From the NCBI RefSeq assembly GCF_014698145.1, contig NZ_JACJSM010000001.1:152633-216632 (forward strand): 64,000 bases of DNA. Direction: 5' to 3'. Source of the stretch: Oscillatoria sp. FACHB-1406 (GTDB taxonomy: Bacteria > Cyanobacteriota > Cyanobacteriia > Cyanobacteriales > Spirulinaceae). Position numbers and translations under genes: made by a program. Positions 817 through 59,069 of this stretch are shown here, piece after piece (the stretch's first letter is position 1; each line of letters opens with the position of its first letter). The notes under the pieces were generated by a model. It was not told where the DNA came from and ran no database searches. It was given only the letters and a program-made list of their open reading frames with translations.

Positions 817-1743
817 ATGGAAACTCTCCTACACAATCCGATTGCAGAAATGTATGGTCCGTCCTTTTTAATCTTATACGGGGGCTTACTGGCGATCGCC
901 TTTTTAGTCAGTCAATTTCTCCGAAAAAAAGAGGATAAAACCGCTCTCCCAATCCCCAAAGTTCCGAGCCAGCCCGATCCCTATCAAATTGCCTATTTAC
1001 GCGGTGGCTCGGTTTATGCGATCGAATTAGTTTGTTTCAGCTTATTGCAGCGCGGTTATCTAGCGTTACAAGGAGAATCCTTCGTTATTTCTACCGAGTC
1101 GCCTTCCCCAGCGGAATTGAACTCTTTAGAACGGACTGTGTTCGATCGCTTTAAAGAGGCGCGATCGCTAGAGGCAATAAGGCAAGATAGAACGCTTAAA
1201 GCTGCTGTCAAAAAGTGTTATCGTCAGTCTACAAAGGACGAACACTTGCTGTTTTCAGAAATGCAGCAAAAAGTCTCCCTAATTTTTCACGCGATCGCCC
1301 TAGCCTTTTTCCTCAGTTTAGCAGGCTATAAAGTTTTGACCGCCTTAATCAACGGACATCACAATATTCAAATATTGAGTTCGATGGCGTTTGTTGCAGC
1401 CTTGTACTTTATTTCGCGTTTGAATAGAGCGCCTGTTCGCTTGACTCAACGCGGCAGCGATTACATCCAGTCAATAAAAATGGCATTTGAGAGCGTAAAA
1501 GTTGAAGCACACTCTCCGGAGCGCTCCAACCTCGCGATCGCGCTTTTTGGTCACTCAAAACTCGTTGGAACTCCCTACGCACAGTATTCAGCATTCTTTC
1601 TTTTTCAAGACAATAAATCTCTTAGCTCTGCTTCCGTTAGTGCGAGCAAAAGAAGTGGAAGTAGCAGCGGGGATAGTAATAGTTGTGGTGGGGGGTGCGG
1701 GAGTAGCTGTAGTGGGGGTTGTGGCGGTTGTGGGGGAGATTAA
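817..1743 (+). CDS. membrane protein with a C-terminal Cys/Gly/Ser-rich low-complexity tail (TIGR04222-like); putative MNIO substrate or precursor
   Basis: ATG start. Hydrophobic N-terminal segment (FLILYGGLLAIAFLV) plus two central TM helices. The C-terminus is SGSSSGDSNSCGGGCGSSCSGGCGGCGGD, with six Cys at CxxxC spacing. A paralogue follows immediately, then a DUF692 gene. Confidence 0.6.
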   Translation: METLLHNPIAEMYGPSFLILYGGLLAIAFLVSQFLRKKEDKTALPIPKVPSQPDPYQIAYLRGGSVYAIELVCFSLLQRGYLALQGESFVISTESPSPAELNSLERTVFDRFKEARSLEAIRQDRTLKAAVKKCYRQSTKDEHLLFSEMQQKVSLIFHAIALAFFLSLAGYKVLTALINGHHNIQILSSMAFVAALYFISRLNRAPVRLTQRGSDYIQSIKMAFESVKVEAHSPERSNLAIALFGHSKLVGTPYAQYSAFFLFQDNKSLSSASVSASKRSGSSSGDSNSCGGGCGSSCSGGCGGCGGD

Positions 1744-1789
1744 TAACTTTTGAAGCTACAATAATTCTGACATCAAAGGTAGGTCAATC

Positions 1790-2719
1790 GTGGAAAACTT
1801 AATTCACAATCCTATTGCTGAAATGTACGGCCCGCATTTTTTAATCTTGTACGGGGCGTTAATCGCGATCGCGGTTTTAGTGACTCAGTTCTTCCGAGAT
1901 GACGCGACAACCGATCTCCTACAGCTTCCAACTCAACCCGATCCTTATGAAGTTGCGTATTTGCGGGGAGGAACTGCTTATGTTTTAGAACTCGCTTGCT
2001 TTAGCTTATTGCAGCGCGGCTACTTAGAACTTCAGAACGAATTGCTCGCACCGCTCTCAACACATCCGCATTTATCAGAACTCAATTCGTTAGAAGAGCG
2101 GGTTTTTAAGACTTTCAATAGTCCCAAAGCGATCGCAACAATTAAGGAAAATCTGGAACTGACAACCGCTTTAGAAAAGCAATATCGCGGACAAGCGATC
2201 GACAAGCAATGGTTTCATTCCGAAGCGAAAAAACGGACGGCGTTTGCTGCGAACGCGATCGCGGTAGGATTTCTGTTGAGCTTGGCTGGTTATAAAATTG
2301 CCGCAGCCTTAATCAACGGACATCGAAATATCGGTTTTTTAATTTTGATGGCGCTCGCAGTAATCTTTTTATTTGCCAACCCTTTTAATCCCTATACTGC
2401 TCCTCGTTTAACTCGACGCGCGCAGTCGTATCTCTCTCGTCTCAAAACTGCTTTTTCCAGCCTAACCGTGGAAGCAGAATCTGCCTATAATTCTCTCCTC
2501 GCGATCGCGTTATTTGGTTCCGCTAAACTCGCCGGAACACCCTACCAAGACTATTCCTCTCTTTTTAACGCGGGATATTCTTATGCTCCCTCCTCATCTC
2601 GTAGCAGCAGCAGTTATAACAGTAGTTGTAGCAGCGGTGGTAGCAGTTGTGGCAGCAGTTGCGGTAGCAGTTGCGGAGGGGGATGTGGCGGCGGTTGTGG
2701 CGGTTGTGGAGGGGGATAA
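1790..2719 (+). CDS. paralogous membrane protein with a C-terminal Cys/Gly/Ser-rich tail (TIGR04222-like); putative MNIO substrate or precursor
   Basis: GTG start with AAAGGTAGG upstream. N-terminus NLIHNPIAEMYGPHFLILYG is almost identical to the upstream paralogue. The tail is SSCSSGGSSCGSSCGSSCGGGCGGGCGGCGGG with seven or more Cys. The stop codon lies 4 nt before the DUF692 start. Confidence 0.6.
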   Translation: MENLIHNPIAEMYGPHFLILYGALIAIAVLVTQFFRDDATTDLLQLPTQPDPYEVAYLRGGTAYVLELACFSLLQRGYLELQNELLAPLSTHPHLSELNSLEERVFKTFNSPKAIATIKENLELTTALEKQYRGQAIDKQWFHSEAKKRTAFAANAIAVGFLLSLAGYKIAAALINGHRNIGFLILMALAVIFLFANPFNPYTAPRLTRRAQSYLSRLKTAFSSLTVEAESAYNSLLAIALFGSAKLAGTPYQDYSSLFNAGYSYAPSSSRSSSSYNSSCSSGGSSCGSSCGSSCGGGCGGGCGGCGGG

Positions 2720-2723
2720 AATA

Positions 2724-3557
2724 GTGTTACCTTCAACACCTTTAGGAATTGGTTTGGGTTATCGAGAACCCTTTCGCAGCGAGCTTTTTTTAAACCGCGA
2801 TTCGGTTGATTTTCTAGAAATTGTTGCCGAACACTATCTCGATCCTAATCCTTTCAAACAGCAAGAACTCGAACTCCTCGCCGCCCATTTTCTCCTCATT
2901 CCCCACGCTCTCAATTTATCAATTGGTAGCGCCGAAGGAATTGATGAAGATTACCTCAAAATTCTCGCTCATTTGATTCGCAAACTCGATCCGCCTTGGT
3001 GGAGCGAACACCTTTGTTTTACCCGCGCGGGTGGTATCGATATCGGGCATCTTTCGCCCCTTCCTTATACTCGCGAAGCAGTAGAAGTTGTTTGTCGTAA
3101 TATCGAAACCGTTCGCCGCCAAATTGACGTTCCTTTAATCCTCGAAAATATTTCCTACTTGGTGACAATTCCCGGTTCGGAGATGACAGAAGCTCAATTT
3201 ATTGGCGAAGTTGCCGATCGTGCAGAGATCGGAATTCTCCTCGACGCAACTAATTTATACACCAATTCTATAAACCATAGTTATGATATAAAAAACTTTT
3301 TATCGCAACTCCCATTAGAACGAATTGTGCAACTTCATTTCGTCGGCGGTTACTGGAACAATGGCATCTTAATTGACAGTCATTCCCACGCCACACCAAT
3401 AGAAGTTTGGGAGTTAATGGCAGAAATTATTGCAAGCGCTCCCGTGCGATGTGTTGTCTTAGAACGCGATGAAAATTTACCGCATTTTGCTGAAATATTA
3501 ACTGAGTTAGAACGCGCGCGGCAGATTTTTAAGTTTTCTGAGGATAAACAAGTTTAA
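2724..3557 (+). CDS. DUF692 family multinuclear non-heme iron oxidase (MNIO; MbnB/TglH/BufB-like)
   Basis: Motifs align with MbnB: FLEIVAEHYL (cf. ELLIDNFH), SEHLCF (cf. SDHI), ILENISYL (cf. FLENYP), ILLDATNLY (cf. LFDASN), LHFVGGY (cf. FHVAGY) and VLERDENLP...ARQIF (cf. YERDFD...LRDIF). The start is probably GTG at 2724; the listed ORF start at 2514 runs through the overlap with the upstream gene in another frame. Confidence 0.85.
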   Translation: MLPSTPLGIGLGYREPFRSELFLNRDSVDFLEIVAEHYLDPNPFKQQELELLAAHFLLIPHALNLSIGSAEGIDEDYLKILAHLIRKLDPPWWSEHLCFTRAGGIDIGHLSPLPYTREAVEVVCRNIETVRRQIDVPLILENISYLVTIPGSEMTEAQFIGEVADRAEIGILLDATNLYTNSINHSYDIKNFLSQLPLERIVQLHFVGGYWNNGILIDSHSHATPIEVWELMAEIIASAPVRCVVLERDENLPHFAEILTELERARQIFKFSEDKQV

Positions 3558-3599
3558 GGATTTGAATGCCATTTCCTATAAGTTTTGCACTAAATTTTA

Positions 3600-3628
3600 C
3601 CGTAGGGGCATAACAGTGTTATGCCCTT
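3600..3628. repeat. REP-like palindrome GTAGGGGCATAACAGTGTTATGCCC (family C), inserted between the MNIO gene and its partner gene
   Basis: Same palindromic motif as the REPs flanking the RAYT at 37390-37418 and 38097-38123 and within the tandem array at 36595-37339. Confidence 0.7.
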
Positions 3629-3744
3629 AGCCTGGGGAACAATCCAAGCTCCATGAGAAATGGTGTAAGAACCACAAAGACACAAAGGACACAAAGTAAG
3701 AGCGCGGGTATTTCACCGATGAGGCAAGAAGGAGCATTTAATAC

Positions 3745-4332
3745 ATGGTAAACTCGCAAAATTTAGCCAAAACGCAACAGTTTTTAGCTCGACTTTATAC
3801 CAATCGTCAATTGCGCGAAGATTTTTTTACTAATCCTCCTGATGTGGCACGAAAATGGGGTATAGAAGAAGGATCGATTCAACAATTATCTACCTTAGAT
3901 CGCGCGCAAGTTGAATTTTTCGCGAGTTCCTTAATCTCTAAACGTTTAAACCAAGTTAGCAAATTTTTGCCTTTAACTCAAAAAGCTTTAGGGCGAGATT
4001 TTTCTCGTCTCTTTGTAGACTACGCCGAAACCTATTCACCTTCAGGGATTAAAAAACATTGGCAGGATGCTTTAGCGTTTTGCGACTTTTTACAACAAAC
4101 TCCTTTTGAGAAAGATTGGTGGTACGATGTCGTGCGTTACGAACGGGAAAATTTGCGACGCTTGGATTCAAAACTGCAATTTTGCTGTTATCGATCGCGC
4201 TATGCAATCCAACCTTTAATTGAAAGCTTGCAAAAATCCTCAGAAACTCCTGTTTTGATTCAAAAACCAACTTGGGTTGTGGAATTTAAAATTGGAGAAT
4301 TTTCATCAAACTTCAGGAAGAATATGGTTTAA
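3745..4332 (+). CDS. putative MNIO partner protein (MbnC/DUF2063-like role inferred from position)
   Basis: 195 aa, same strand, directly downstream of the DUF692 gene. MNIOs usually act with a small partner protein. The family assignment is not certain from sequence alone. Confidence 0.4.
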   Translation: MVNSQNLAKTQQFLARLYTNRQLREDFFTNPPDVARKWGIEEGSIQQLSTLDRAQVEFFASSLISKRLNQVSKFLPLTQKALGRDFSRLFVDYAETYSPSGIKKHWQDALAFCDFLQQTPFEKDWWYDVVRYERENLRRLDSKLQFCCYRSRYAIQPLIESLQKSSETPVLIQKPTWVVEFKIGEFSSNFRKNMV

Positions 4333-4596: not shown

Positions 4597-5991
4597 TCAA
4601 ACGCAAATTTGCTCCAAAGTTTGGAAGAATTCGGGGTAAGAAATGGAAGCAGCTTCGGCGCGGCGAACGGTGGTTTCTCCCTTGGCGCGGAGGGCTGCGA
4701 TCGCGAAACTCATGGCAATCCGATGGTCGGTATAACTGTCCATTTCTGCCCCGGTTAAATTCGCTCCGCCGCTAATTTCTAAGCCATCCGGCAACTCGCT
4801 AACCGTTGCACCCATGCGGTTGAGGTGGGCGGCAGTTACGGCAAGGCGATCGCTCTCCTTCACTCGCAATTCTGCCGCATCTCGAATTTGGGTCGTCCCT
4901 TGCGCAGCGATCGCAGCAACTGCTAAAATAGGGATCTCATCGATTAACCTAGGGATAATCTGGCCGGAAATCGTGCACCCCTTCAACTTGCTATAGCGCG
5001 CGCGCAAATCTGCTACGGGTTCCCCCGCTACCAAGCGTTCGTTTTCCAACGTAATATCGCCTCCCATCTCGCCCAACGCTTCGAGGATTCCGGTGCGAGT
5101 CGGGTTCACACCGACATTTTCCACCACTAATTCCGAACCCGGTACAATCGCCGCAGCCACCAGCCAGAAAGCCGCCGAACTGATATCACCGGGAACAATA
5201 ACGTGCTGCCCTTTTAACTCGCCTTCCTGCCCGTAAATCCCGACGCTATTGGTACGGGTATCGACTTCAAGTTTAGCCCCAAAGGCTTGCAACATTCGTT
5301 CGCTATGGTCGCGGGAGAGGGCGGGTTCGGTAACGGTAGTCTTACCGGAGGCAGAAAGTCCGGCGAGTAGCAAGCAAGATTTAACTTGTGCCGAGGCAAT
5401 GGGAGAGATGTAATGAATGCCTTTGAGTTGTTGCCCTCTGACGGCCAGAGGAGCGAGAGTATCGCCGTTTCTGCCCCAAATTTCCGCCCCCATTTGTCGC
5501 AGGGGTTGGATGACGCGAGACATGGGACGAGAGCGTAAGGAATTATCCCCTGTAACGGTAAAGAAGCGATCGCGACTCGCCGCCAATAGCCCCAACATCA
5601 ACCGCAGCGTCGTTCCCGAATTGCCCGCATTGAGGACATCTTGGGGTTCCTGCAACTGTCCCAAGCCAATCCCTTTAACCGTGACTTTCGCTTCGTTTAA
5701 CTCGGAGATTTCCGCCCCCATCGCCCGGAAACAAGCAGCCGTACTGCGGGGATCCTCGCCCAATAATAACCCTTCAATGGTCGTTTCTCCCGACGCGATC
5801 GCGCCCAACATCAACGCCCGATGCGAAATCGACTTATCCCCCGGCACGCGAATGCGCCCTTGTAGCGACAGATTCGGGGAGGGCGTAACGATTAAATCTT
5901 GATGGTTTTCTCGGGATTGAAGCGTAACGACAGCCATGAGTGGGGAGATAACATAAGGAGCATCGCCGATTTTATCCCATTTTGAGACCAA
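4597..5991 (-). CDS. aroA: 3-phosphoshikimate 1-carboxyvinyltransferase (EPSP synthase)
   Basis: [36 protein letters not shown] and the general EPSP synthase architecture. The true start may be the internal Met (MAVVTLQS). Confidence 0.9.
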
Positions 5992-6121
5992 GGCTTGGCA
6001 ATCCCGTAGGGTGTGGAGCGCGAAGCGTAACGCACCATTCCCGTACCATTCCCACTCCGAGAGGTTTTGACGATCGTTTTCCGTAAATTATCATAGAGCA
6101 AGACTCTACACCGACCGCTAG

Positions 6122-9100
6122 ATGACCGACGCGCCCTGCGAAGCAGCACGAAGTCCCGACTTTCAACCCTACTTACAAGCCATCCGCCAACGTTACGAGC
6201 GCTGGTGGGAAGTTTATAGCGTAACCGATGTCCGAGGGCGAGAAAACTGCCCGCCTTCCGCCCCTCCCTACGGCAAAAATTCCTCATCCCCCTTCGACTT
6301 TGGGTTGACGGTGCAAGTGGTAACGCCAGAAGAGAAGCGCCCGCAGCAACCTCTACCTGTATTAGAAAGGTTGCGGAAGTATGTCTTTGACGAAAAGACG
6401 CGGCATCTGCTTTTAGTAGGAAGACCGGGATCGGGGAAATCGACAGCTTTAGCGCGATTGCTGTTGGAAGAGAGCAACGCAACTTCGGGCGTAATTCCCG
6501 TGCTGGTGGAATTGCGTTATTGGCAGACTTCCATCGAAGCGCTGATTCTCGATTTCTTTGGCCAGCACGGGTTGAAATTGAACGAAACGCAACTGGAAAC
6601 TCTGCTGGTAGAAAAGCGTTTCCTGCTGCTGATGGATGGCATCAACGAATTATCCTCAGAAACAGCGCGATCGCAATTAAACACCTTTCGGCAAACCTAT
6701 CGACAACTTCCCATCATCTTTACCACGCGGGATTTAAGCTTAGGCGGCGATTTCGGCATTGAGAAGAAATTGGAAATGCAACGCCTAACGGAACCGCAGA
6801 TACAGGCTTTTGTCCGCGCCTATTTGTCCGAACCAGGGGAAGAATTATTGCGGCAGTCACAGGGAAAATTGCGGCAGTTTGGCGAAACGCCCTTGCTGTT
6901 GTGGATGCTGTGCGAAGTGTTTCAGCAAAGTCCTCAAGCGCAATTACCGAGGAACTTGGGCGGAATTTTTCAGGTGTTTGCGCGCTCTTATGAAAACAGT
7001 AGCGTGCGAAAACACGAAGTTGCTCCTTTGAAAGGGGATACTAAACCCTTGTCGGAGCGAAAATTGTGGGCGAAAGCGCTGGAGCATTTGGCGGGATTGA
7101 TGGTGCGCGGCAAAAATTCCGTTGAGTTGGAAGTGACGATTGAGCGGCAAGTAGCAGAACGAGAACTCGAAGGACTCTTTCAGGGCGAACCCTTTCCCCC
7201 GAAAACAGCGCGCGATTGTTTGGATGATTTGCTCAAATATCACCTCTTGCAAATGAAAGTCGAAGATAAAATCGAGTTTCTGCACCAATTGATTCAAGAA
7301 TATTATGCAGCCGAGGCATTATTGGCGCGGTTGCCAGAGTTGAGCGATGCGGAGTTGAAGCGGGATTATCTCAATTATCTGAAGTGGACGGAACCTGTGG
7401 CGTTGATGTTGGGGTTAGTTGGGGATGAGACGCAGGCGCTGCGGGTGGTGCGGTTGGCGTTGGAGGTGGATTGGAGGTTGGGAGCGCGATTGGCGGGGGA
7501 GGTGAAACGGGATTTTCAGGAACAGACGGTGGGAATTGTAACGGCGTTGGATGTGCCGCAGGGGTTGAAGTGGGAGTTGTGGGTGGAAACGCGATCTGAT
7601 GTTGCTGTTTCGGAATTGGTTAATGCAGGTGAAGATGAATCCTCCTGGGTGCGTCAGAGGGCGGCAGAGGTGTTAGGGAAACTGGGTTCAGAGGCCGCGA
7701 TACCGGGTTTGCTCTCTGCTGTGCGTGGAAGTGTGGTAGAAGCATTAGGAAAACTGGGTTCGGAGGCGGCGATACCGCGTTTGCTCTCTGCTCTCGAAGA
7801 TGAAGACTCCTGGGTGCGCAAAAGTGCGGTAGAAGCATTAGGAAAACTGGGTTTAGAAGCCGCGATACCGGGTTTGCTCTCTGCTCTCGAAGATGAAGAC
7901 TCCTGGGTGCGTGAAAGTGCGGTAAAAGCGTTAGGAAAACTGGGTTCAGAAGCCGCGATACCAGGTTTACTCTGGACTCTCGAAGATGAAGATTACCGTG
8001 TGCGTGAAAGTGCGGTAAAAGCATTAGGAAAACTGGGTTCGGAGGCGGCGATACCGGGTTTACTCTGGGCTCTCGAATATGAAGACTCCGATGGGCGTGA
8101 AAGTACGGTAGAAACGTTAGGGAAACTGGGTTCAGAAGCCGCGATACCAGGTTTACTCTGGACTCTCGAAGATGAAGATTACCGTGTGCGTGAAAGTGCG
8201 GTAAAAGCATTAGGAAAACTGGGTTCGGAGGCGGCGATACCGGGTTTACTCTGGGCTCTCGAAAATGAATCCTCCCTGGTGCGTGAAAGTGCGGTAAAAG
8301 CGTTAGGAAAACTGGGTTCAGAAGCCGCGATACCGGGTTTGCTCTTTGCTCTCGAAGATGAATCCTCCCGGGTGCGTGAAAGTGCGGTAGAAGCGATAGG
8401 AAAACTGGGTTCGGAGGAAGTGATACCGGGTTTGCTCTCTGCTCTCAAAGATGAAGATGACTTGGTGAGCATGAGGGCGGTAGAAGCGATAGGAGAACTG
8501 CATTCAGATGCGGCGATACCGGGTTTGCTCTGTGCTCTCGAAGATGAATCATACTGTGTGTACAAAAGGGCGGTAGAAGCGTTAGGAAAACTGGGTTCGG
8601 AGGCAGCGATAACGGTTTTGTTTCAGGTTCTTGAAAATCAAGACCCAGCAAGGTGTTTGCACGCAGCAGAAGCATTGTGGCATTTTAGTTTAAATGCCAC
8701 AATATTAGGTTTGATCGAAAGTCTTAAAAATCCACACTTTTTTGTGCGTTGGAGTGCGGTTCAAGCTTTAGAAAAAATAGGATTAGAAACGGCTATAATA
8801 GGGACAATCGAAGGTCTTAAAGATCGAAGCTTTTTGATTCGCTGGTATTCGTTAGAAATTCTATGGCAGATTAGTTTAAATATTGAAATTTTCGATCTGC
8901 TTCATTTTTTTGAAAATTACGAATCGAGCGAGTGGGAATATCTAAAAGAGTTATACAAAGACCAGTGCAAAGAAAAGTTAATAATGGGTTTTCTCAAAGA
9001 CCTTGATAGACCAGAATATTTCCTTCGCTGGAGTGCTGTGAAGGCATTAGGAAAATTGCCTTCCAAAACAGGAATTCCAGGTTTAGTAAAAAGTCTTAAA

Positions 9101-10069
9101 GACAGAGAGCCTCTCATACGTCTATACGCGATACAAGCGCTATGCAATCAAAGTTTAGAAGCCGGAATGCTGGGCGCGATCGAAGGTATCAACGATCCAG
9201 ATATATGCGTGCGTTTGTATGCAATGAAAGCCTTAGAAGAACTGGGTTCGGAAGTGGCAATACCGGGTTTTCTCCAGACTCTCGGACACGAAGATTCCTT
9301 AGTGCGTCAGAGGGCGGCAGAGGTTTTAGGAAAACTGGGTTCGGAAGTGGCAATACCGGGTTTGCTCTCTGCTCTCGAAGATGAAGACTTCTGGGTGCGC
9401 AAAAGTGCAGTAGAAGCGTTAGGAGAACTGGGTTCAGAAGCCGCGATACCGGGTTTGCTCAATGCTCTCAAAGATAAATACTCCGATGTGCGTGAAAGTG
9501 CGGTAAAAGCGTTAGGAAAACTGAGTTCGGAAGCCGCGATACCGGGTTTGCTTTCTGCTCTCGAAGATGAAGACTCCCGGGTGCGTGAAAGTGCGGTAAA
9601 AGCGTTAGGAAAACTGGGTTCAGAAGCCGCGATACCGGGTTTACTCTGTGCTCTCGAAAATGAAGACTCCCGGGTGCGTGAAAGTGCGGTAAAAGCATTA
9701 GGAAAACTGGGTTCAGAAGCCGCGATACCGGGTTTGCTCAATGCTCTCGAAGATGAATCCTCCCGGGTGCGTAATAGTGCGGTAGAAGCGTTCGGAAACC
9801 TCAAAAACGATCGCGCCGCCCACATTCTCCCCCACCTCCTCACCCTCATCCCCACCGAATCCGGCGAATCCGCATTCCGCGCCCTCACTGCCATTCAAGC
9901 CAACTGCAAATTCTACAACTACGACCTCTTCAAATCTCCTCCCCTCCCCACAGTACCCGCAACGCCTCCTGCTGTCGTTCGCTATGAGTTCCACAACACC
10001 GAAGTCGTCACCATCGTCGAAAAAAATAACGGCGAAGTCATCGGCAAACAAATCTCCGAGGCAGAATAA
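6122..10069 (+). CDS. NACHT-family STAND NTPase with a C-terminal array of about 25 PBS-lyase-type HEAT repeats
   Basis: Walker A LLLVGRPGSGKSTALARLL, Walker B LLLMDGINEL and a NACHT-like region. These are followed by 31-aa repeats of the form ESAVKALGKLGSEAAIPGLLxALEDEDxxVR, encoded with a 93-nt period. Confidence 0.85.
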   Translation: MTDAPCEAARSPDFQPYLQAIRQRYERWWEVYSVTDVRGRENCPPSAPPYGKNSSSPFDFGLTVQVVTPEEKRPQQPLPVLERLRKYVFDEKTRHLLLVGRPGSGKSTALARLLLEESNATSGVIPVLVELRYWQTSIEALILDFFGQHGLKLNETQLETLLVEKRFLLLMDGINELSSETARSQLNTFRQTYRQLPIIFTTRDLSLGGDFGIEKKLEMQRLTEPQIQAFVRAYLSEPGEELLRQSQGKLRQFGETPLLLWMLCEVFQQSPQAQLPRNLGGIFQVFARSYENSSVRKHEVAPLKGDTKPLSERKLWAKALEHLAGLMVRGKNSVELEVTIERQVAERELEGLFQGEPFPPKTARDCLDDLLKYHLLQMKVEDKIEFLHQLIQEYYAAEALLARLPELSDAELKRDYLNYLKWTEPVALMLGLVGDETQALRVVRLALEVDWRLGARLAGEVKRDFQEQTVGIVTALDVPQGLKWELWVETRSDVAVSELVNAGEDESSWVRQRAAEVLGKLGSEAAIPGLLSAVRGSVVEALGKLGSEAAIPRLLSALEDEDSWVRKSAVEALGKLGLEAAIPGLLSALEDEDSWVRESAVKALGKLGSEAAIPGLLWTLEDEDYRVRESAVKALGKLGSEAAIPGLLWALEYEDSDGRESTVETLGKLGSEAAIPGLLWTLEDEDYRVRESAVKALGKLGSEAAIPGLLWALENESSLVRESAVKALGKLGSEAAIPGLLFALEDESSRVRESAVEAIGKLGSEEVIPGLLSALKDEDDLVSMRAVEAIGELHSDAAIPGLLCALEDESYCVYKRAVEALGKLGSEAAITVLFQVLENQDPARCLHAAEALWHFSLNATILGLIESLKNPHFFVRWSAVQALEKIGLETAIIGTIEGLKDRSFLIRWYSLEILWQISLNIEIFDLLHFFENYESSEWEYLKELYKDQCKEKLIMGFLKDLDRPEYFLRWSAVKALGKLPSKTGIPGLVKSLKDREPLIRLYAIQALCNQSLEAGMLGAIEGINDPDICVRLYAMKALEELGSEVAIPGFLQTLGHEDSLVRQRAAEVLGKLGSEVAIPGLLSALEDEDFWVRKSAVEALGELGSEAAIPGLLNALKDKYSDVRESAVKALGKLSSEAAIPGLLSALEDEDSRVRESAVKALGKLGSEAAIPGLLCALENEDSRVRESAVKALGKLGSEAAIPGLLNALEDESSRVRNSAVEAFGNLKNDRAAHILPHLLTLIPTESGESAFRALTAIQANCKFYNYDLFKSPPLPTVPATPPAVVRYEFHNTEVVTIVEKNNGEVIGKQISEAE

Positions 10070-10097: not shown

Positions 10098-10470
10098 ATG
10101 GCAAAAACCCTAACCCTGAAACTTCCAGACGAACTTGAAAATTAATTAAACTTGCGCGCTGACTCCCTTAACCTCTCTCTAGAAGCATTCATTCTGCAAA
10201 CCTTAAGTCAATCGCTTCCTTCAACCCAACCCGTCGCCCTATGGCCGGAGATTATTTTAAGCTTTAAAGGTATCCCCGACTTCCTCCCTTTCGAGTCCTA
10301 CCGCGACGAACTCCTTCCCCCTCGCGAACCGGAGGTTTTTTAGTGCGTTACTTGCTCGATACCTGCGTTATCAGCGACTTCATCAAACAAGAACCCGGTA
10401 CGCAAACCCGCCTTCAACAAACTCCACCCACCGACATCGCTGTTTCCAGCATTACCGTCATGGAACTGCG
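10098..10470 (+). pseudogene. degraded VapBC-like toxin-antitoxin pair: a frameshifted RHH antitoxin plus a truncated PIN toxin
   Basis: MAKTLTLKLPDELEN* (15 aa) is followed in another frame by ...LNLSLEAFILQTLSQ..., an antitoxin-like continuation. Then a GTG ORF gives VRYLLDTCVISDFIKQ...VMELR*, a PIN N-terminus truncated after about 43 aa. Confidence 0.5.
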
Positions 10471-10495
10471 TTAGTAAAAACAAATAAAAACCTTC

Positions 10496-10987
10496 TCATT
10501 CCCCCATCTGAATGAGTCGATCGAGATTGTCACTGCTAATGCGATAAGCCGCACCAAAACCGACGACAAAACGCCCGGATTGCGGGACGAGTTTAAAGAT
10601 GCGAAAGTCGGGCAAACTACGAAACATTTCAATGATATCGCCGAAGCGAGATTGAAACAGAGTGACAATCGCTTCCCATTCAGAAGTATCGCGAGGGAGC
10701 AGCGTCGCCGTACAATTATAACTGAGGCGGCGACGCGCAAAAATTTGTCTGGCTTTACTTTCGTCTTCGATTAATAAGAGGCTGGCGCGGGGATTGTTTT
10801 CGAGGTTTTGAGTATGGGTAGAAAGTCCGCTGACGTAGATATAAAAATTTCGAGCTTCATCGCTGACAAAAGGGGCGTAACTCGTGTCTGGGACTCCCTC
10901 TAGATCGACAGTTCCGAGAATTAAGCTTTCAACTTCTCTGGCGAATTGTTGATATTCGGCTTGAGTTTCTTCTAATTTATTTGTCAT
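10496..10987 (-). CDS. pyridoxamine 5'-phosphate oxidase-like FMN-binding split-barrel family protein
   Basis: 163 aa; family-level resemblance only (FYIYVSGLSTHTQNL...RASLLL). Confidence 0.5.
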   Translation of the reverse strand: MTNKLEETQAEYQQFAREVESLILGTVDLEGVPDTSYAPFVSDEARNFYIYVSGLSTHTQNLENNPRASLLLIEDESKARQIFARRRLSYNCTATLLPRDTSEWEAIVTLFQSRFGDIIEMFRSLPDFRIFKLVPQSGRFVVGFGAAYRISSDNLDRLIQMGE

Positions 10988-26220: not shown

Positions 26221-28296
26221 ATGGGTTTAGAGCGTTCCAAAAATCTTCAGGCAGCACAGGAAAAAATTTACCGCTTTTTTCTTAAATTAGTTCGACACGA
26301 GCCACCAGAAACAGTTCTCGAACGTTTTAAAAATCTTTTTGTATTTGGGGTTGATTCTCTAGCGCCGGAAATTCAACAAGCTTTATACGACATTATTTTA
26401 AGTCGCGACGAACTCATTTTTAAAAATACCTTTAAAAGAACTTGTTACATTATTACCAATAATTGGATTTCAGAAAATCGCGCCCACTACATCGATAAAT
26501 TAGTTGAAATCATTGCTGAAGTTAAAGAACATACACAAACGCTCTCGCGGAGTTTAAGTTGTCTGAGAACCTGGATTAGCAACTTTATTGAAACAGAAGA
26601 TTATCAAGAAATCAAGCGCATTTCTGAATTTTATTCAAGAGACTCGAAAAAATCTTGGAATCAACGTTATACTTCCTTTTTGTTAGTCCCTCAATATCTC
26701 GACTTAGAAAACCCGAAAGAACAGCGAGAAATTGCAAAAAAATTATCCGACGAACTCAAGAACAAATACAAGTCAGATTTAGCCCTATTCTCTGCCCACA
26801 ATCCCCTTCGAGCCACTCCTCCCGTTCGAGAAAATCCCACTCATCTCGGACAAGACGCGATCGCGATTGTTAAAAATATCGTCGCCCAAAATCTCCGGTA
26901 CAGTTACGAACATCACTCTCGCGCTTTTATCGATACAGTGCGCGATGGTGACTACGAAAGCTTTAAATCGAGCTTGCAAGGTTATTTAACCTTCGGAGTT
27001 CCGAATCAACAAGCCGTCGAACTTCTCGATCGCAACATGAGCGCGAAAATACTAAATCTTTATCGAGAACGGAACGATTCTAACTTAACCTTAGAATTAT
27101 TGCTACGAACTTGTCGTCGTATTATTGAAATTTTAACAATCGAAGATGGAGCTACCCCTTCAAAGCTCTTTATTTTATTGAGCGATCGCGAAAAAGCGCT
27201 GAGTTTGTCAATGATTTTACTTAAAATAATTTTGATTTGTAAATACGCGCGGATTCACCTAGAAGCTTGCATCGCTAAACTGATTCAGTATTATGAAAAA
27301 GTTCCAGAACAAGAATGTCAGTGGTTCATCTATTTTTTAGAAGTTTTTAACGTTGTTTTTTCGGTTTACACTGAAAATATCAACTATAATCTCGTGCGCG
27401 TCGGCAACGGTACAGCGGCGGGGAAAAGCGCGATCGATCTCGAAGCCTATCGCGTTTTTCCGCAGTTGAAAAGTATGAACCTGCGCGAAAATGACTTGAA
27501 AAAGAGCGACTTACGCGGTCAAAACTTGAGCGCCGCCGACTTAAGAAAAGCCAATCTTAGCGGTGCAGATTTAAGCGAAACCGACCTAAGTTTAGCAAAA
27601 TTTGCCTTTGCCAACTTGAACAATGCAATTCTCGATCGCGCCGATTTAGTAGCAGCGAACTTATCTGAAGCCAACTTGCAAGGAGCGAGTTTAAAACAAG
27701 CGATTTTGCGCCATAGCAATTTGCAAAAAGCCTGTCTCATTGGAGCAGATCTCAGTCAAGCACGCTTAAAGTTAGCCGACTTAACAGAAGCAAATTTAAG
27801 TCGCGCTTTCCTCAAACAAGCTGACTTTAGTCATGCTAACTTAGCCGGAGCTAATCTGACTGGAGCGAGTCTCAGTCGCGCCAACTTAACGGGAGCCAAT
27901 CTAACGGGAGCCAACCTAGCAGAAGCCAATCTGAGTGGAGCAAACTTAACGGGAGCCAACCTACAAGGAGCCAATCTCAAACGGACTTTTTTGCGCCGTG
28001 CCGTCCTCATCGATACGAGTTTGAGGCAAGCTATCTTATACCATGTAGAGTTGAGCTATGCGACTTTAACTAATGTGGATTTGAGCGAAGCAACTTTAGT
28101 GAATTCTTACTGTCGCCACGTCAAAATTGACGGGACGAATTTCAGGGATGCGCGCCTGATTAAAACAAATTTCTTTAAAACAAAATTGAACCGAGCGCAG
28201 GTTGAAAAAGCTCACTTTCAGGAAAGTTTGGGAATTTCTGCCCTGCAACAAAGAAAGCTCGAAGAACGAGGTGCAGTTTTTGAGGAGTTGCCCTGA
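26221..28296 (+). CDS. pentapeptide-repeat protein with a ~400-aa N-terminal domain of unknown function
   Basis: The C-terminal ~270 aa consist of A(D/N)LxxANLxx pentapeptide repeats. The N-terminal part is AT-rich relative to its neighbours. Confidence 0.8.
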   Translation: MGLERSKNLQAAQEKIYRFFLKLVRHEPPETVLERFKNLFVFGVDSLAPEIQQALYDIILSRDELIFKNTFKRTCYIITNNWISENRAHYIDKLVEIIAEVKEHTQTLSRSLSCLRTWISNFIETEDYQEIKRISEFYSRDSKKSWNQRYTSFLLVPQYLDLENPKEQREIAKKLSDELKNKYKSDLALFSAHNPLRATPPVRENPTHLGQDAIAIVKNIVAQNLRYSYEHHSRAFIDTVRDGDYESFKSSLQGYLTFGVPNQQAVELLDRNMSAKILNLYRERNDSNLTLELLLRTCRRIIEILTIEDGATPSKLFILLSDREKALSLSMILLKIILICKYARIHLEACIAKLIQYYEKVPEQECQWFIYFLEVFNVVFSVYTENINYNLVRVGNGTAAGKSAIDLEAYRVFPQLKSMNLRENDLKKSDLRGQNLSAADLRKANLSGADLSETDLSLAKFAFANLNNAILDRADLVAANLSEANLQGASLKQAILRHSNLQKACLIGADLSQARLKLADLTEANLSRAFLKQADFSHANLAGANLTGASLSRANLTGANLTGANLAEANLSGANLTGANLQGANLKRTFLRRAVLIDTSLRQAILYHVELSYATLTNVDLSEATLVNSYCRHVKIDGTNFRDARLIKTNFFKTKLNRAQVEKAHFQESLGISALQQRKLEERGAVFEELP

Positions 28297-56492: not shown

Positions 56493-59069
56493 TTACAACC
56501 AATTACCAATGAGAATAAAAGGCGACCAGAGAGCAGGATGACTGTAGTTGTGGTTTTCGAGCATTTTCAATTGGGCGCGTCGCAGGGCTTCAGCTTTAGT
56601 CACGCTGGGATCGAGGAGTTGTTGGTAGAAAGTTTGGATTAGGGGAACGGTGGCTTCGTCATTAATAAACCAAAGGGTAGCGAGGGCGCTTTCAACTCCG
56701 GCGCGCACGGCAACGCCAGCAATACCGAGGGTAGAACGATTGTCGCCGACAGCAGTTTGACAGGCGCTCAAGGCGAGTAAGGCGACGGGGCGCTCTCTGG
56801 AGCGTAAGATATTATCTAATTCATCGATCGCGAGCGGGCCATCATCCGCAAGGACAAAAGTGCTTTCGGCATTCACCCCAAAACGTCCGTGAGTTGACAT
56901 ATGCACGATCGCAAATTCTTGGTGTTGGATTTGGGTTGCAAAATTATTGCGGTTAAAATCGCGATCGAGAAGAGTAACTCCGCCAAAAATCTGCTGCACT
57001 GCCTCCATTTCAGCCCGAACGTTTTTAAGCGGTGCAAAAGAGAGTTGAAGGGTTGAAGGCGTTTTAGGTAAAATTTTTCCTTCCGTTAAGCCGACGCTAA
57101 GCGCTTTGAGACGATCGCGAGCGAGGGGTTTCGAGACGGTTAAACTGACGCTGGGAGCGACCACAAGCGGGTATTTTTGGATTAAAAAAACTTTGCCGTC
57201 GTGGAGAGCGGCCATTGGAATTTTACGAAGAACGCCATCATTAATAAAGAGGAGCGTCTCCGGTTTCGCCGCAGCGAGATCTGTTTCGAGGGGACGCAGC
57301 AAAAGATCGTAAAGTTTTTGCGCTAACGGTAAGTAGCGTCCGGAAGTTCGATCTTCGAGGAAATAGCGAAATTGAGTAATTTCTTCGTCGATTTCGCTGC
57401 TGCTAAGGTTGGCAGCATAATATTGCGTGGTGTTATCCGGCCGTTGCAGGATAGTATAAAGGCGATCGTCGAGAATAATGGTGTAAATGGCTGCGGTGTT
57501 AGTTTCAGATAAACTGCGATTTTCCCGAGCGTTATTTAGGGCTAATTCTACGCAATCGTCGCCGAAGAAGTTTTGAATTTCGGCAAGTTTGAGGTTTTCG
57601 AGAATATTAATAATTTCGCTGAGGGTAGTAGCGCTAGCCTTCGCGTCTTTGGGGAGTTGTTTGTTGCGGGTTGCAATGGCAGCAGGTTGGGAGTCGAGTA
57701 GCAGGGCAAGCAGTTGGCGATAAACGGGTTCAACGCGATCGCGGAAATCGAATTGAATGTCTTTATTCACCCGAATCAAATCGCTGCGAATGCTCTGCAA
57801 GCTGACAATTGCACCTTTATAAGCGGCGATCGCCGCTTGTTTTTGTCCGAGGGCATTAAGGATGCGTCCTGCTTGCCACTGCCAGCGATACAAGCTATCG
57901 GGTGCATTGACTTCTTGAGCGAAGGCTTGCGCTTGCCGCGTGTAGTCCATCGCCCGAGACAAATCTTTCAATTGCGTTTCGTAGAGTTCCCCTAGACTGC
58001 CGGAGGCAAAGGATTCTGCCTTGCGATCGCCGATTTTTCGAGCAACGCCCGCCGCGTTTTCTAACACCTCGAGGGTATCGTTCGCCTTGGCAAAATCGGG
58101 ATGGCGGAGGAAACTGTTACCCAGATTTATGAGCAGGTAGGCTTTTTCGCGCGAGTCGCTAATTTGGGGAAGCAGTTCGCGCGCGCGCTGCCAGTGGGCG
58201 AGGGTTAAGCTGCGAAACTTTTCTGGTGCTAGGGGATAAATTCCACTATCGAGCAGGCGGTTGTAATTGAGAAGCGCTCGGACTTCTTCAACCGGGGCGT
58301 TTTGTTTTGCCGCGCTCGTGCTTTCCTCGAACAATTGCTGCGATCGCTCCCAGCTTTCTTTTGTAGAGCGCTCTAACTCTTCGGCTTGCCGATCGCCTTC
58401 CTCTTGGGCGAGTTGAACTTGGTAGTGCAAGCGTTCGGCTTGTTGGCGATAAACGTTGGCCAGATCGCTGAGTGTTGTTGCAATGGAGCGGGGATCGTTG
58501 AGTTGACGGGCGAGTTCGAGGCTGCTTTGATAGGCGGCGATCGCATTGTCGTATTTTCCCATCGCGCTGTAGGCATTGCCCGAGATTCCTTGTAGGGCGG
58601 CTCGAACGTGGGGAGTGAGTTGGGCGTTTTTAATTTCGGGCAATTCGAGCAGCGAGAGGGCGCGCTCGGACTGCCCTAAGTCGTTGTAAGTTTGAGCTTG
58701 TTCGATGAGGAGTTGGGCAATTTCCTCGGATTTATTGAGAGGGCGATAGAGAGCGATCGCGTTTTCCCAAGCGGCGATTGCTTCGGAAAGCTTGCCAGTT
58801 TGTCGGTAGGCGAGGGCGAGATTGCTGTAAAGGAGGGCGCGATCGCTTGTTTCGCTAGTTTCGGGCAGGAGTTGTTGCCAAACTGCGATCGCGCGATCGA
58901 AGTTGCCACTCTGATAAGCCTCCAGCCCTTGTTGCGCGACAGCCGCCGTTGAAAGCGGTTCCGAGGGGAGTTGTGCGACAGCCATTCTTCCGTGCAGCAG
59001 CCCGCAGAGTGCCAAACCGAGGGTAAAGCTCAGCCCCGCTTTCAACCAGCGATACAACCCCTTCGTCAT
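56493..59069 (-). CDS. TPR-repeat protein with a C-terminal CHAT (caspase-like) protease domain
   Basis: Signal/TM N-terminus and multiple TPRs. CHAT domain with His (VHMSTHGRF) and Cys (LLALSACQTAVG) dyad motifs. Confidence 0.85.
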   Translation of the reverse strand: MTKGLYRWLKAGLSFTLGLALCGLLHGRMAVAQLPSEPLSTAAVAQQGLEAYQSGNFDRAIAVWQQLLPETSETSDRALLYSNLALAYRQTGKLSEAIAAWENAIALYRPLNKSEEIAQLLIEQAQTYNDLGQSERALSLLELPEIKNAQLTPHVRAALQGISGNAYSAMGKYDNAIAAYQSSLELARQLNDPRSIATTLSDLANVYRQQAERLHYQVQLAQEEGDRQAEELERSTKESWERSQQLFEESTSAAKQNAPVEEVRALLNYNRLLDSGIYPLAPEKFRSLTLAHWQRARELLPQISDSREKAYLLINLGNSFLRHPDFAKANDTLEVLENAAGVARKIGDRKAESFASGSLGELYETQLKDLSRAMDYTRQAQAFAQEVNAPDSLYRWQWQAGRILNALGQKQAAIAAYKGAIVSLQSIRSDLIRVNKDIQFDFRDRVEPVYRQLLALLLDSQPAAIATRNKQLPKDAKASATTLSEIINILENLKLAEIQNFFGDDCVELALNNARENRSLSETNTAAIYTIILDDRLYTILQRPDNTTQYYAANLSSSEIDEEITQFRYFLEDRTSGRYLPLAQKLYDLLLRPLETDLAAAKPETLLFINDGVLRKIPMAALHDGKVFLIQKYPLVVAPSVSLTVSKPLARDRLKALSVGLTEGKILPKTPSTLQLSFAPLKNVRAEMEAVQQIFGGVTLLDRDFNRNNFATQIQHQEFAIVHMSTHGRFGVNAESTFVLADDGPLAIDELDNILRSRERPVALLALSACQTAVGDNRSTLGIAGVAVRAGVESALATLWFINDEATVPLIQTFYQQLLDPSVTKAEALRRAQLKMLENHNYSHPALWSPFILIGNWL

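Follow-up and report, generated by a model that had tools for sequence, protein, structure and literature searches.

A cyanobacterial NACHT-HEAT NTPase with an internally homogenized repeat array and a candidate C-terminal output motif

The window analyzed here is a contiguous stretch of 64,000 nucleotides (nt) from the cyanobacterium Oscillatoria sp. FACHB-1406 (contig NZ_JACJSM010000001.1, positions 152,633 to 216,632 of the forward strand), and the subject of this work is a gene near its start that encodes a STAND NTPase, in which a NACHT module is followed by a long array of HEAT repeats of the PBS-lyase type and by a short C-terminal tail (Table 1). The original prediction, made from the sequence, had described the product as a NACHT NTPase with a short N-terminus and ~25 HEAT repeats whose DNA units are near-identical in two blocks around a diverged, AT-rich core. 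Here we describe the domains of this protein, the evolution of its repeats within a large cyanobacterial family, and a tail motif with which, in relatives, a small partner protein begins. We consider it probable that the gene encodes an NLR-like receptor.

Table 1. Features of the NACHT-HEAT gene and its flanks in the window, followed by the partner genes of related loci, each under the handle of its locus
Feature	Position (nt)	Strand	Remarks
Sigma-70-like promoter candidate (TTGACG, 16-nt spacer, TATCAT)	6067-6094	+	28 nt before ATG
NACHT-HEAT STAND NTPase open reading frame	6122-10069	+	ATG start, 1315 aa, complete
Conserved pre-NACHT segment, aa 13-36 (DFQPYLQAIRQRYERWWEVYSVTD)	6158-6229	+	Invariant columns, predicted helix
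NACHT module NBD-HD1-WHD-HD2, aa ~60-500	6299-7621	+	Pfam, invariant residues, AlphaFold2/Foldseek
Walker A GRPGSGKS, aa 100-107	6419-6442	+	Agrees with GxxxxGK[ST]; invariant in family alignment
Walker B LLLMDGINE, aa 168-176	6623-6649	+	
HEAT block 1, units 1-11	7628-8629	+	Homogenized
Unit 2, cut to 24 aa	7721-7792	+	Without first 7 aa (LEDEDxx; 21 nt), two surface-variable positions among them
Unit 5	7979-8071	+	Identical to unit 7
Unit 7	8165-8257	+	Identical to unit 5
Diverged AT-rich core, units 12-18	8630-9280	+	Exact 31-aa register; GC 0.39, GC3 0.33
Perfect hairpin, 12-bp stem, 6-nt loop (ATTGTGGCATTT TAGTTT AAATGCCACAAT)	8674-8703	+	In unit 12, 5' edge of core
HEAT block 2, units 19-23	9281-9745	+	Apparently the same homogenized pool as block 1
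Unit 24 (last, diverged) and family C-terminal cap	9746-9922	+	
Pro-rich linker and 24-aa type B tail motif RYEFHNTEVVTIVEKNNGEVIGKQ	9923-10066	+	Motif aa 1287-1310, nt 9980-10051
Decayed toxin-antitoxin remnant	10098-10475	+	Directly 3' of receptor gene
Partner gene (~125-135 aa), L035	9023-9430		
Partner gene, L004	10356-10739		
Partner gene, L028	9325-9732		
Partner gene, L038	8660-9097		
Partner gene, L045	9130-9537		
Partner gene, L076	8733-9140		
Partner gene, L081	1871-2230		

The short N-terminus of ~90 amino acids (aa) is a conserved, family-specific pre-NACHT segment, made up of a helix and a disordered linker, and contains no effector domain, as had been noted before. A Pfam search with aa 1-93 gave no match. 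In an alignment of the window protein with 55 homologues (56 sequences), residues Y17, Y25, W28, and Y32 of this segment are invariant, and an AlphaFold2 model of aa 1-520 derived from the same alignment (pLDDT 83.9, pTM 0.77) places aa 15-31 in a single helix (pLDDT ~93 in aa 11-20), followed by a disordered stretch at aa 33-58 and then by the nucleotide-binding domain (NBD). The NACHT assignment holds as well, since Pfam NACHT (PF05729) matches aa 95-237 with 33.5 bits, above its gathering cutoff of 26.7 bits, and the Walker residues are intact. Residues G100, P102, G103, G105, K106, S107, D172, G173, N175, and E176 are invariant across the family alignment. When the model was compared with known structures by using Foldseek, the best matches were NLRC4 (4kxf; E value of 1.9e-12), NLRP3 (7alv; 1.4e-11), NOD2 (5irm; 2.7e-11), and NAIP5. 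The E values of the top NLR matches range from 1e-12 to 1e-8, and the alignments span the NBD, helical domain 1 (HD1), the winged-helix domain (WHD), and helical domain 2 (HD2); the best query-normalized TM-score (TMq) was 0.53, to activated NLRC4 (3jbl). As modeled, the NACHT module is therefore structurally closest to the animal proteins NLRC4, NLRP3, and NOD2.

The array that follows consists of 24 units rather than the ~25 counted earlier, each of 31 aa or 93 nt, which span aa 503-1239 (nt 7628-9838) in a register that is unbroken through the diverged middle. The Pfam scores (HEAT_2, 447 bits; HEAT_PBS, 322 bits), together with the NLR fold matches, bear out the combination of a NACHT module with PBS-type HEAT repeats. 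Tandem Repeats Finder reported two period-93 arrays without indels, at 7721-8620 (9.7 copies, 84% matches) and at 9227-9798 (6.2 copies, 84%). Among units 1-11 and 19-23, the pairwise DNA identity ranges from 68 to 100%, with values of typically 80-90% and a mean of ~84%. Units 5 and 7 agree at 93 of 93 nt, units 4 and 22 at 96%, units 22 and 23 at 95%, and units 3 and 20 at 92%; the longest exact repeat measures 141 nt (7937-8077 = 8123-8263), and the next-longest measures 63 nt. The earlier description of the repeats as near-identical thus stands as regards two similar blocks and one identical pair of units, but it overstates the typical identity. The internally truncated early repeat is unit 2, which is short by 21 nt or 7 aa.

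The relationship between the two blocks was examined by comparing them at every collinear offset. The mean identities obtained in this way lie between 80 and 87%, with no register favored, and a simple segmental duplication of one block into the other is not supported for this reason. Instead, blocks 1 and 2 look like one homogenized pool that extends across the core. Three reverse-strand open reading frames (ORFs) within the array (7620-8210, 8179-8565, and 9307-9894) were set aside as by-products of the repeats; the gene on the opposite strand is strongly supported by homology.

The core between the blocks is diverged and AT-rich, as originally described, and sequence identity, GC content, and GC content at third codon positions (GC3) all agree on this point. 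Units 12-17 share 32-62% DNA identity with all other units, and unit 18 shares 43-70%; most of the core is still HEAT-like, unit 15 (8909-9001) barely so. The GC content of units 12-16 is 0.30-0.40, versus ~0.51 in the flanking blocks, and the GC3 of these units is 0.30, compared with 0.41-0.43 in the blocks, 0.57 in the NACHT part, 0.64 in the tail, and 0.51 ± 0.06 in 21 other genes of the window. The reading frame of the core is open over 217 AT-rich codons, for which the chance of encountering no stop, estimated from the base composition, is ~1e-6; by this estimate, the core is still selected for an open reading frame. A perfect hairpin at the 5' edge of the core (Table 1) occurs as a single copy in the window, and a matching pattern was found in 0 of 100 shuffled sequences. 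We found no evidence for a foreign origin of the core: a search of 5.8 billion proteins for a donor of units 12-18 returned one match only, with 30% identity, and a local BLAST comparison of the core with the family arrays gave identities of only 30-37%.

Sixteen other long arrays of the family were compared with that of the window. They usually consist of one homogenized block with diverged units at its start and end, and none contains a seven-unit diverged core, which is thus peculiar to the window gene among the arrays compared. The association of divergence with AT-richness is more general. Because the identity of a unit to the consensus of its array correlates with the GC content of that unit in 14 of the 16 arrays (pooled Spearman coefficient of 0.42; p = 7e-14), AT-rich diverged units represent a family trend. 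We read the core as a group of units that escaped from homogenization and drifted to AT or, conversely, the homogenized units as those kept at a higher GC content by conversion. A separate observation concerns lone diverged units inside the homogenized arrays of L080, L061, and L079, which are markedly more AT-rich than their neighbors (unit 8 of L080, GC 17% versus ~35%; unit 12 of L061, GC 30% versus ~43%). Either AT-biased drift or GC-biased conversion could account for the AT-richness of diverged units.

A protein search with aa 1-502 retrieved 822 proteins at an E value of ≤0.001, and among the best 120 of these 822, every named match is cyanobacterial, with a top identity of 65%. Looked up as exact sequences in collections that include no genome of the same species, the receptor and the aroA product were without a match. 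A scan of one genome per species yielded 80 loci (best identity, 64-65%), from which 79 homologous ORFs with lengths of 475-1571 aa were analyzed. Period-93 arrays are present in ~50 of the 79 homologues, with 2-29 copies and 69-97% match (for example, 10.6 copies at 96% in L025, 12.6 copies at 94% in L043, and 18.4 copies at 89% in L079), and the 84% match of the window array is middling for the family. The NACHT modules of the homologues are 43-65% identical to that of the window protein. Since each array matches its own consensus and the NACHT modules have diverged much further, homogenization acts within each gene. The original prediction had proposed recent unequal crossing-over or concerted evolution on the basis of the window gene; concerted evolution, through unequal crossing-over or by gene conversion, is the natural reading of these arrays and is supported by the ~50 internally homogenized homologues. 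Repeat homogenization is therefore the norm in this family, and the window gene is a typical representative of a large cyanobacterial group. The further suggestion that such an array is prone to assembly trouble received indirect support, as 13 of the 79 homologous ORFs are cut short where their contig ends on the 3' side, either within the array or shortly behind it.

The family members differ in the modules attached to this common framework. Upstream of the pre-NACHT segment, a trypsin-like peptidase (P0010 and P0012) or an EAD10 domain (P0025) can be present, and the cap at the end of the array can be followed by a TIR domain, a PNP_UDP nucleosidase domain (L079; 62 bits), a helical module of ~170 aa, or a short tail. 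No N-terminal domain is present in 53 of the 79 homologues, and 11 of the 79 have the architecture of the window protein, with no N-terminal domain and a short tail. To judge from these domain searches, the window protein is without an enzymatic effector.

The best sequence matches of the array in the PDB are alphaRep proteins (9sah_A, with 385 bits; 6ft5, 4zv6, and 3ltj), and a CpcE chain (5n3u_A) matches it with only 55 bits. The design of the alphaRep libraries was drawn from this natural repeat family, and the positions randomized in the alphaRep module, 18, 19, 22, 23, 26, and 30, line the concave interacting face (Guellouz et al. 2013, PMC3754942). In the register used here, they correspond to positions 6, 7, 10, 11, 14, and 18. 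Units were taken from 31 family proteins with a unit hidden Markov model (HMM), and the entropy between units within the same protein was calculated. The five positions with the highest within-protein entropy are 7, 10, 6, 14, and 11, all of which are alphaRep equivalent, and position 18 ranks seventh, behind position 5. On the sequence evidence, the naturally variable positions of the repeats coincide with the alphaRep binding-surface positions, and the arrays appear to be the natural counterpart of alphaRep binders.

Within the window array, variability peaks at positions 30, 7, and 10, where almost every difference is nonsynonymous. A crude Nei-Gojobori count between paralogous units of one gene gave a ratio of nonsynonymous to synonymous differences (pN/pS) of 0.78 at the six alphaRep-equivalent positions, 0.46 elsewhere, and 2.07 at position 30, a pattern compatible with one surface evolving in a relaxed or diversifying manner. 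Position 30 itself (aa 532, 556, 587, and so on; nt 7715-7717 in unit 1) is hypervariable, with S, W, C, N, F, or Q, in the window gene only. It is located on the first helix, off the alphaRep binding face, and shows no such variability elsewhere in the family.

The array leads into a C-terminal cap with the signature IQxxC[KQ][FY]YN[YH], which was identified in 39 of 80 sequences (the 79 homologues and the window gene). The window cap ends with IQANCKFYNY (aa 1262-1267; nt 9905-9922), and HILPHLLTLIPTESG..AFRALTAIQANCKFYNYD of the cap region is also found in P0001 and P0002. The C-terminal 76 aa gave no match to Pfam. They include a proline-rich linker and a tail motif, here referred to as type B, with which a homologue from Anabaena azotica (L066) also ends. 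A commoner tail, type A, reads ..YIFHQPVGNLNTGDVNIHGNQIGxQ and contains G-[ND]-Q-[IV]-G, which is near the G-phi-Q-phi-G core of RHIM, PP, and BASS3. Neither the cap nor the tail motif had featured in the original prediction. We regard the tail motif as the most likely candidate for the output element of the window receptor.

In L035, a 135-codon ORF overlaps the stop codon of the receptor gene and opens with a type A motif (FHFNQAPGNVNTGDVTIQGDQVGIQHNY), and a similar ORF is located downstream of the receptor in L004. A search with the small L035 protein returned 88 clusters, all named ones of which are cyanobacterial, with the sequence either standing alone (105-150 aa) or fused behind HEAT repeats. 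In these partner proteins, the N-terminal motif varies, a QHNYAPEQKQNLAEAAKEIQQLLDQL..TYPT segment is conserved, and the C-terminus is helical and again variable. P0172 and P0190 both begin with SKY[ST]IHTEVNQIIETNTGTVIGKG, which is the type B motif and is identical to the window tail at 14 of 25 positions. On the contig that encodes P0172 (L081), a gene for a HEAT-array protein is located 660 nt upstream, and this protein ends with ...IQFHCKFYNYEIAQ...TTYSIKAEVVQIIEKNYGNIIGQ before its stop codon, again a type B tail. When the loci were scanned with a partner signature, the partner turned up immediately 3' of the receptor in L004, L028, L035, L038, L045, L076, and L081, and the motif types match in all of these pairs, L081 being type B and the others type A. 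There is also fine covariation between receptor and partner, with NAGDT on both sides in L038 and NTGDV on both sides in L035. In several Nostoc homologues (L039, L042, L043, L047, L053, L056, L057, L064, L067, and L069), the motif and the helical domain are fused to the receptor. An AlphaFold2 model of P0172 shows aa 1-36 as unstructured (pLDDT <50) and aa 36-118 as five helices (pLDDT ~80). Partners do not always adjoin a receptor: L066 has no adjacent partner, and P0190 is not encoded beside any receptor, so arrangements with the partner encoded in trans occur.

In light of this, the C-terminal tail and the small helical-bundle protein of ~125 aa may constitute an undescribed cyanobacterial signaling pair with several covarying motif classes, in which clustered tails would template or recruit the partner. 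We put this forward tentatively, as one possible account of the gene pairs. A literature search, which was not exhaustive, did not find such an arrangement of receptor tail and partner.

The receptor gene is monocistronic, being divergent from aroA (4597-5991, minus strand) and convergent with a PNPOx-like gene (10496-10987, minus strand). The divergent intergenic region common to the receptor gene and aroA contains a promoter candidate (Table 1) with 10 of 12 consensus matches; such sites are no commoner in this region than in shuffled sequence, which makes the candidate a weak one. Within about 10 kb on each side, the genes are aroA, a homologue of an enzyme that modifies ribosomally synthesized and posttranslationally modified peptides (RiPPs), the PNPOx gene, and genes for an MBL-fold protein, AroC, an aspartyl protease, a GGDEF regulator, and TldD. 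The sole mobile-type element near the receptor gene is the decayed toxin-antitoxin remnant directly downstream of it. Here, an ORF for an RHH/FitA-like antitoxin (MAKTLTLKLPDELEN, stop, ...) is broken at 10143-10145 by an in-frame TAA, and a PIN-like stub (10343-10475) of only 43 codons (VRYLLDTCVISDF...) comes after it.

Taken together, our preferred reading is that of an NLR-like NACHT receptor with the HEAT array as sensor and with output through the C-terminal tail motif to a small partner protein, and we regard this as probable, if far from assured. In such a receptor, the HEAT array would be a ligand-binding sensor that catches its ligand on the variable concave face of the solenoid. Unequal crossing-over and gene conversion among the 93-nt units would alter the number of units and reshuffle the residues of this surface, in the manner of the fungal NLRs with highly conserved repeats, and units 12-18 would have escaped homogenization and drifted to AT while still being selected for an open frame. 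Ligand binding would free the NACHT module for nucleoside triphosphate (NTP) binding and oligomerization, oligomerization would cluster the C-terminal tails, and a small helical partner bearing the same motif at its N-terminus would be recruited or templated by the tail cluster. The partner of the window receptor would be encoded elsewhere or have been lost. By homology to studied NLRs and to alphaRep, ligand capture and NTP-driven oligomerization are the most likely course of the early steps. We infer tail clustering and partner engagement from the way the genes pair up in relatives, and the sole ground for proposing an immune or conflict role is that paralogous members of the family carry fused effector domains.

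A number of observations weigh against this receptor model. The Walker B motif of the window protein reads DGINE, and that of the family DGxNE, whereas the NACHT signature is D[GAS]hDE (Kibby et al., bioRxiv 10.1101/2022.07.19.500537); the motif retains the small residue as well as the second acid, and the first acid is replaced by an asparagine, N175, that is invariant. At the six surface positions, pN/pS is below 1 and does not demonstrate positive selection, only position 30 having a value above 1. The type B tail of the window protein (...NNGEVIGKQ) lacks the G-phi-Q-phi-G core of RHIM and BASS3. For the partner protein, no Pfam match and no significant Foldseek match were obtained (best E value, 0.47), and the partner signature is absent from both strands of the 64-kb window. 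The surroundings of the gene point the same way. The original prediction had raised the prospect of a defence-island neighborhood, but no known defence genes were found in the ~10 kb on either side, where housekeeping genes such as aroA, aroC, and those for PNPOx and the MBL-fold hydrolase are located instead. It had also mentioned Avs-like immunity in connection with STAND NTPases that have repeat sensors. We rejected membership of the Avs families: PADLOC returned weak partial or repeat-driven matches only (Avs2, with 20.7 and 14.7 bits for parts of the NTPase; mad8, with 27.5 bits), which reflect the P-loop or the repeats, and the window protein has no N-terminal effector.

If the partner has been lost, the gene could be a decaying orphan that no longer signals, with the AT-rich core and the truncated unit as signs of early degeneration. 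This would fit the absence of a partner at the position where L081 has one, the decayed RHH and PIN remnants that lie there instead, and the GC3 of the core, which is at the floor of the distribution in the window. In L081 and L082, moreover, an RHH protein is encoded 3' of the partner gene, and the RHH remnant is 50% identical to it over 46 aa. This hints weakly at a partner gene that may formerly have been present at this locus; we keep this synteny as a hint only, because the match covers 46 aa at 50% and toxin-antitoxin modules are mobile. The gene itself does not look degenerate, however. Its 3945-nt frame is uninterrupted, the AT-rich codons of the core included, the family-invariant NTPase residues are all intact, and the cap and tail are intact and conserved with L066 and L081. 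Partners encoded in trans moreover exist, as the cases of L066 and P0190 indicate. We therefore consider decay unlikely.

A sensor built from PBS-lyase-type repeats might alternatively recognize a self protein of the light-harvesting apparatus, with phycobiliproteins as ligands and an NTPase that reports or regulates the status of the phycobilisome. The same repeat type occurs in CpcE/F and NblB, the array scores 313.9 bits with the NCBIfam model of CpcE and 231.5 bits with that of NblB in addition to its HEAT_PBS match, the gene lies among housekeeping genes, and cyanobacterial NACHT proteins with GUN4 sensors may monitor photosynthesis (Kibby et al., bioRxiv 10.1101/2022.07.19.500537). However, the NCBIfam scores are all below their cutoffs (330 for CpcE, 300 for NblB, and 220 for CpcF, for which the score is 146.1) and are sums over generic repeats, in 8-9 stretches for CpcE and NblB, and the sequence match to the solved CpcE chain is far behind that to consensus-type alphaRep (55 versus 385 bits). 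Paralogous members carry TIR, trypsin-like, and nucleosidase modules that are typical of conflict systems, and the hypervariable surface positions indicate changing targets rather than a single conserved one. We judge a phycobilisome sensor to be improbable, on a par with decay or slightly behind it. Least probable is a layout that is partly an assembly artifact, in which the true number or order of units differs and the two blocks stem from a collapsed or chimeric assembly, since, for all the difficulty of assembling high-identity 93-nt units, the presence of the 141-nt exact repeat, and the homologous ORFs that end at a contig edge near the array, the units are all distinct except for the pair 5 and 7, the next exact repeat of 63 nt means that reads of at least 150 nt could resolve most junctions, frame and 31-aa register are perfect over 24 units, the array length is within the family range (up to ~29 units), and the window is one contiguous stretch.

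With the receptor model as the preferred account, the significance of the locus can be stated as follows. The receptor itself adds one more member to hundreds of cyanobacterial NACHT-HEAT proteins, and the finding on its repeats is confirmatory. As a family, these proteins offer a clean prokaryotic parallel to the fungal NLRs with highly conserved repeats, and their arrays represent a natural system of binder diversification, in which the same positions vary as in the engineered library and which could be mined. The question of how receptors without an effector signal obtains a concrete candidate answer in a C-terminal motif that matches the N-terminus of a partner in relatives. If templating or homotypic recruitment is indeed what happens, motif-based NLR signaling in bacteria would gain a topology and an effector domain that are both new. 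The tail-partner system could be the only new biology here, and it belongs to the family and not to the window locus in particular.

Several other genes of the window deserve mention in their own right. A region on the plus strand, 817-4332, contains the homologue of a RiPP-modifying enzyme of the MbnB/TglH/ChrH family (2514-3557; 282 bits), flanked by ORFs at 817-1743 and 3745-4332 without a Pfam match and by one at 1790-2719 with a weak, subthreshold match to DUF2207_C; this region may be a small peptide-modification cluster. A homologue of the Major Vault Protein of 856 aa is encoded at 30716-33286 on the minus strand, with matches to the Pfam families Vault (208 bits), MVP_shoulder (183 bits), and Vault_2, Vault_3, and Vault_4. 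To our knowledge, vault proteins are essentially eukaryotic, and this gene is located in an otherwise cyanobacterial chromosome segment. Other genes of the type found in conflict systems of multicellular bacteria are also scattered among the housekeeping genes, including one for a TPR-CHAT (caspase-like) protein of 858 aa (56493-59069, minus strand). Two further genes of this type encode a Ser/Thr kinase with a fused FGE-sulfatase (FGS) domain (34607-36538, plus strand) and a pentapeptide-repeat protein of 691 aa (26221-28296, plus strand).

Among known systems, Avs proteins resemble the window protein in combining a STAND NTPase and a helical-repeat sensor in a single gene. Unlike them, the window gene belongs to the NACHT clade, lacks a nuclease or protease effector and a defence-island context, and has the low Avs2 scores given above. 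The bacterial NACHT proteins and the STAND conflict systems of multicellular bacteria are closer. In these, effectors are located at the very N-terminus or, in fewer cases, C-terminal to the repeats (Kibby et al., 10.1101/2022.07.19.500537; Kaur et al., PMC7159879, PMC8195603). The family described here shares with them the central NACHT module, C-terminal HEAT repeats, which are among the superstructure-forming repeats listed for such systems, the expansion in cyanobacteria, and the placement of effectors. The window member differs in being without an effector at both ends and in its DGINE motif, and none of the bacterial NACHT proteins tested is closely related to it.

Signaling through short motifs is known from fungal NWD2/HET-S, from the bacterial BASS1-10 motifs with Bell domains (10.1101/2020.01.06.895854), from Bab/Agp (10.1101/2024.11.07.622273), and, as a principle, from the effector-associated domains (EADs) (PMC8195603). 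With these amyloid and EAD systems, the relatives of the window receptor share a motif of ~25 aa that is common to the receptor and an adjoining small protein, covaries between the two, and is predicted to be disordered in the monomer. In contrast to BASS and HET-s, where the canonical motif is at the N-terminus of the NLR and the C-terminus of the effector, the motif here is C-terminal on the receptor, after the repeats, and N-terminal on the partner. The partner is a predicted helical bundle without detectable similarity to Bell or HeLo domains, the type B tail of the window protein is without the Q core, and the window contains no partner.

The array itself has its closest counterparts in alphaRep (PMC3754942; 3ltj, 4jw2, 6ft5, and 9sah), with which it shares the 31-residue unit ..DxDxxVRxxAxxALGxxG...AIxxLxxxL and, as it appears, the variable positions; it differs in that the window protein is natural, carries 24 units on an NTPase switch, and is also hypervariable at position 30, on the other helix. 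For its mode of evolution, the nearest parallel is provided by fungal NLRs with highly conserved repeats, such as HET-E/NWD proteins with WD, ANK, TPR, or HEAT repeats, in which concerted evolution is documented (Dyrka et al. 2014, PMC4986451). The window gene is unlike these in being prokaryotic, in having 31-aa PBS-type HEAT repeats, and in its pN/pS at the variable positions. What it has in common with them is the internal DNA identity of the repeats, concerted evolution, and the restriction of variability to a few surface positions, and a polymorphism in repeat number is to be expected here as well.

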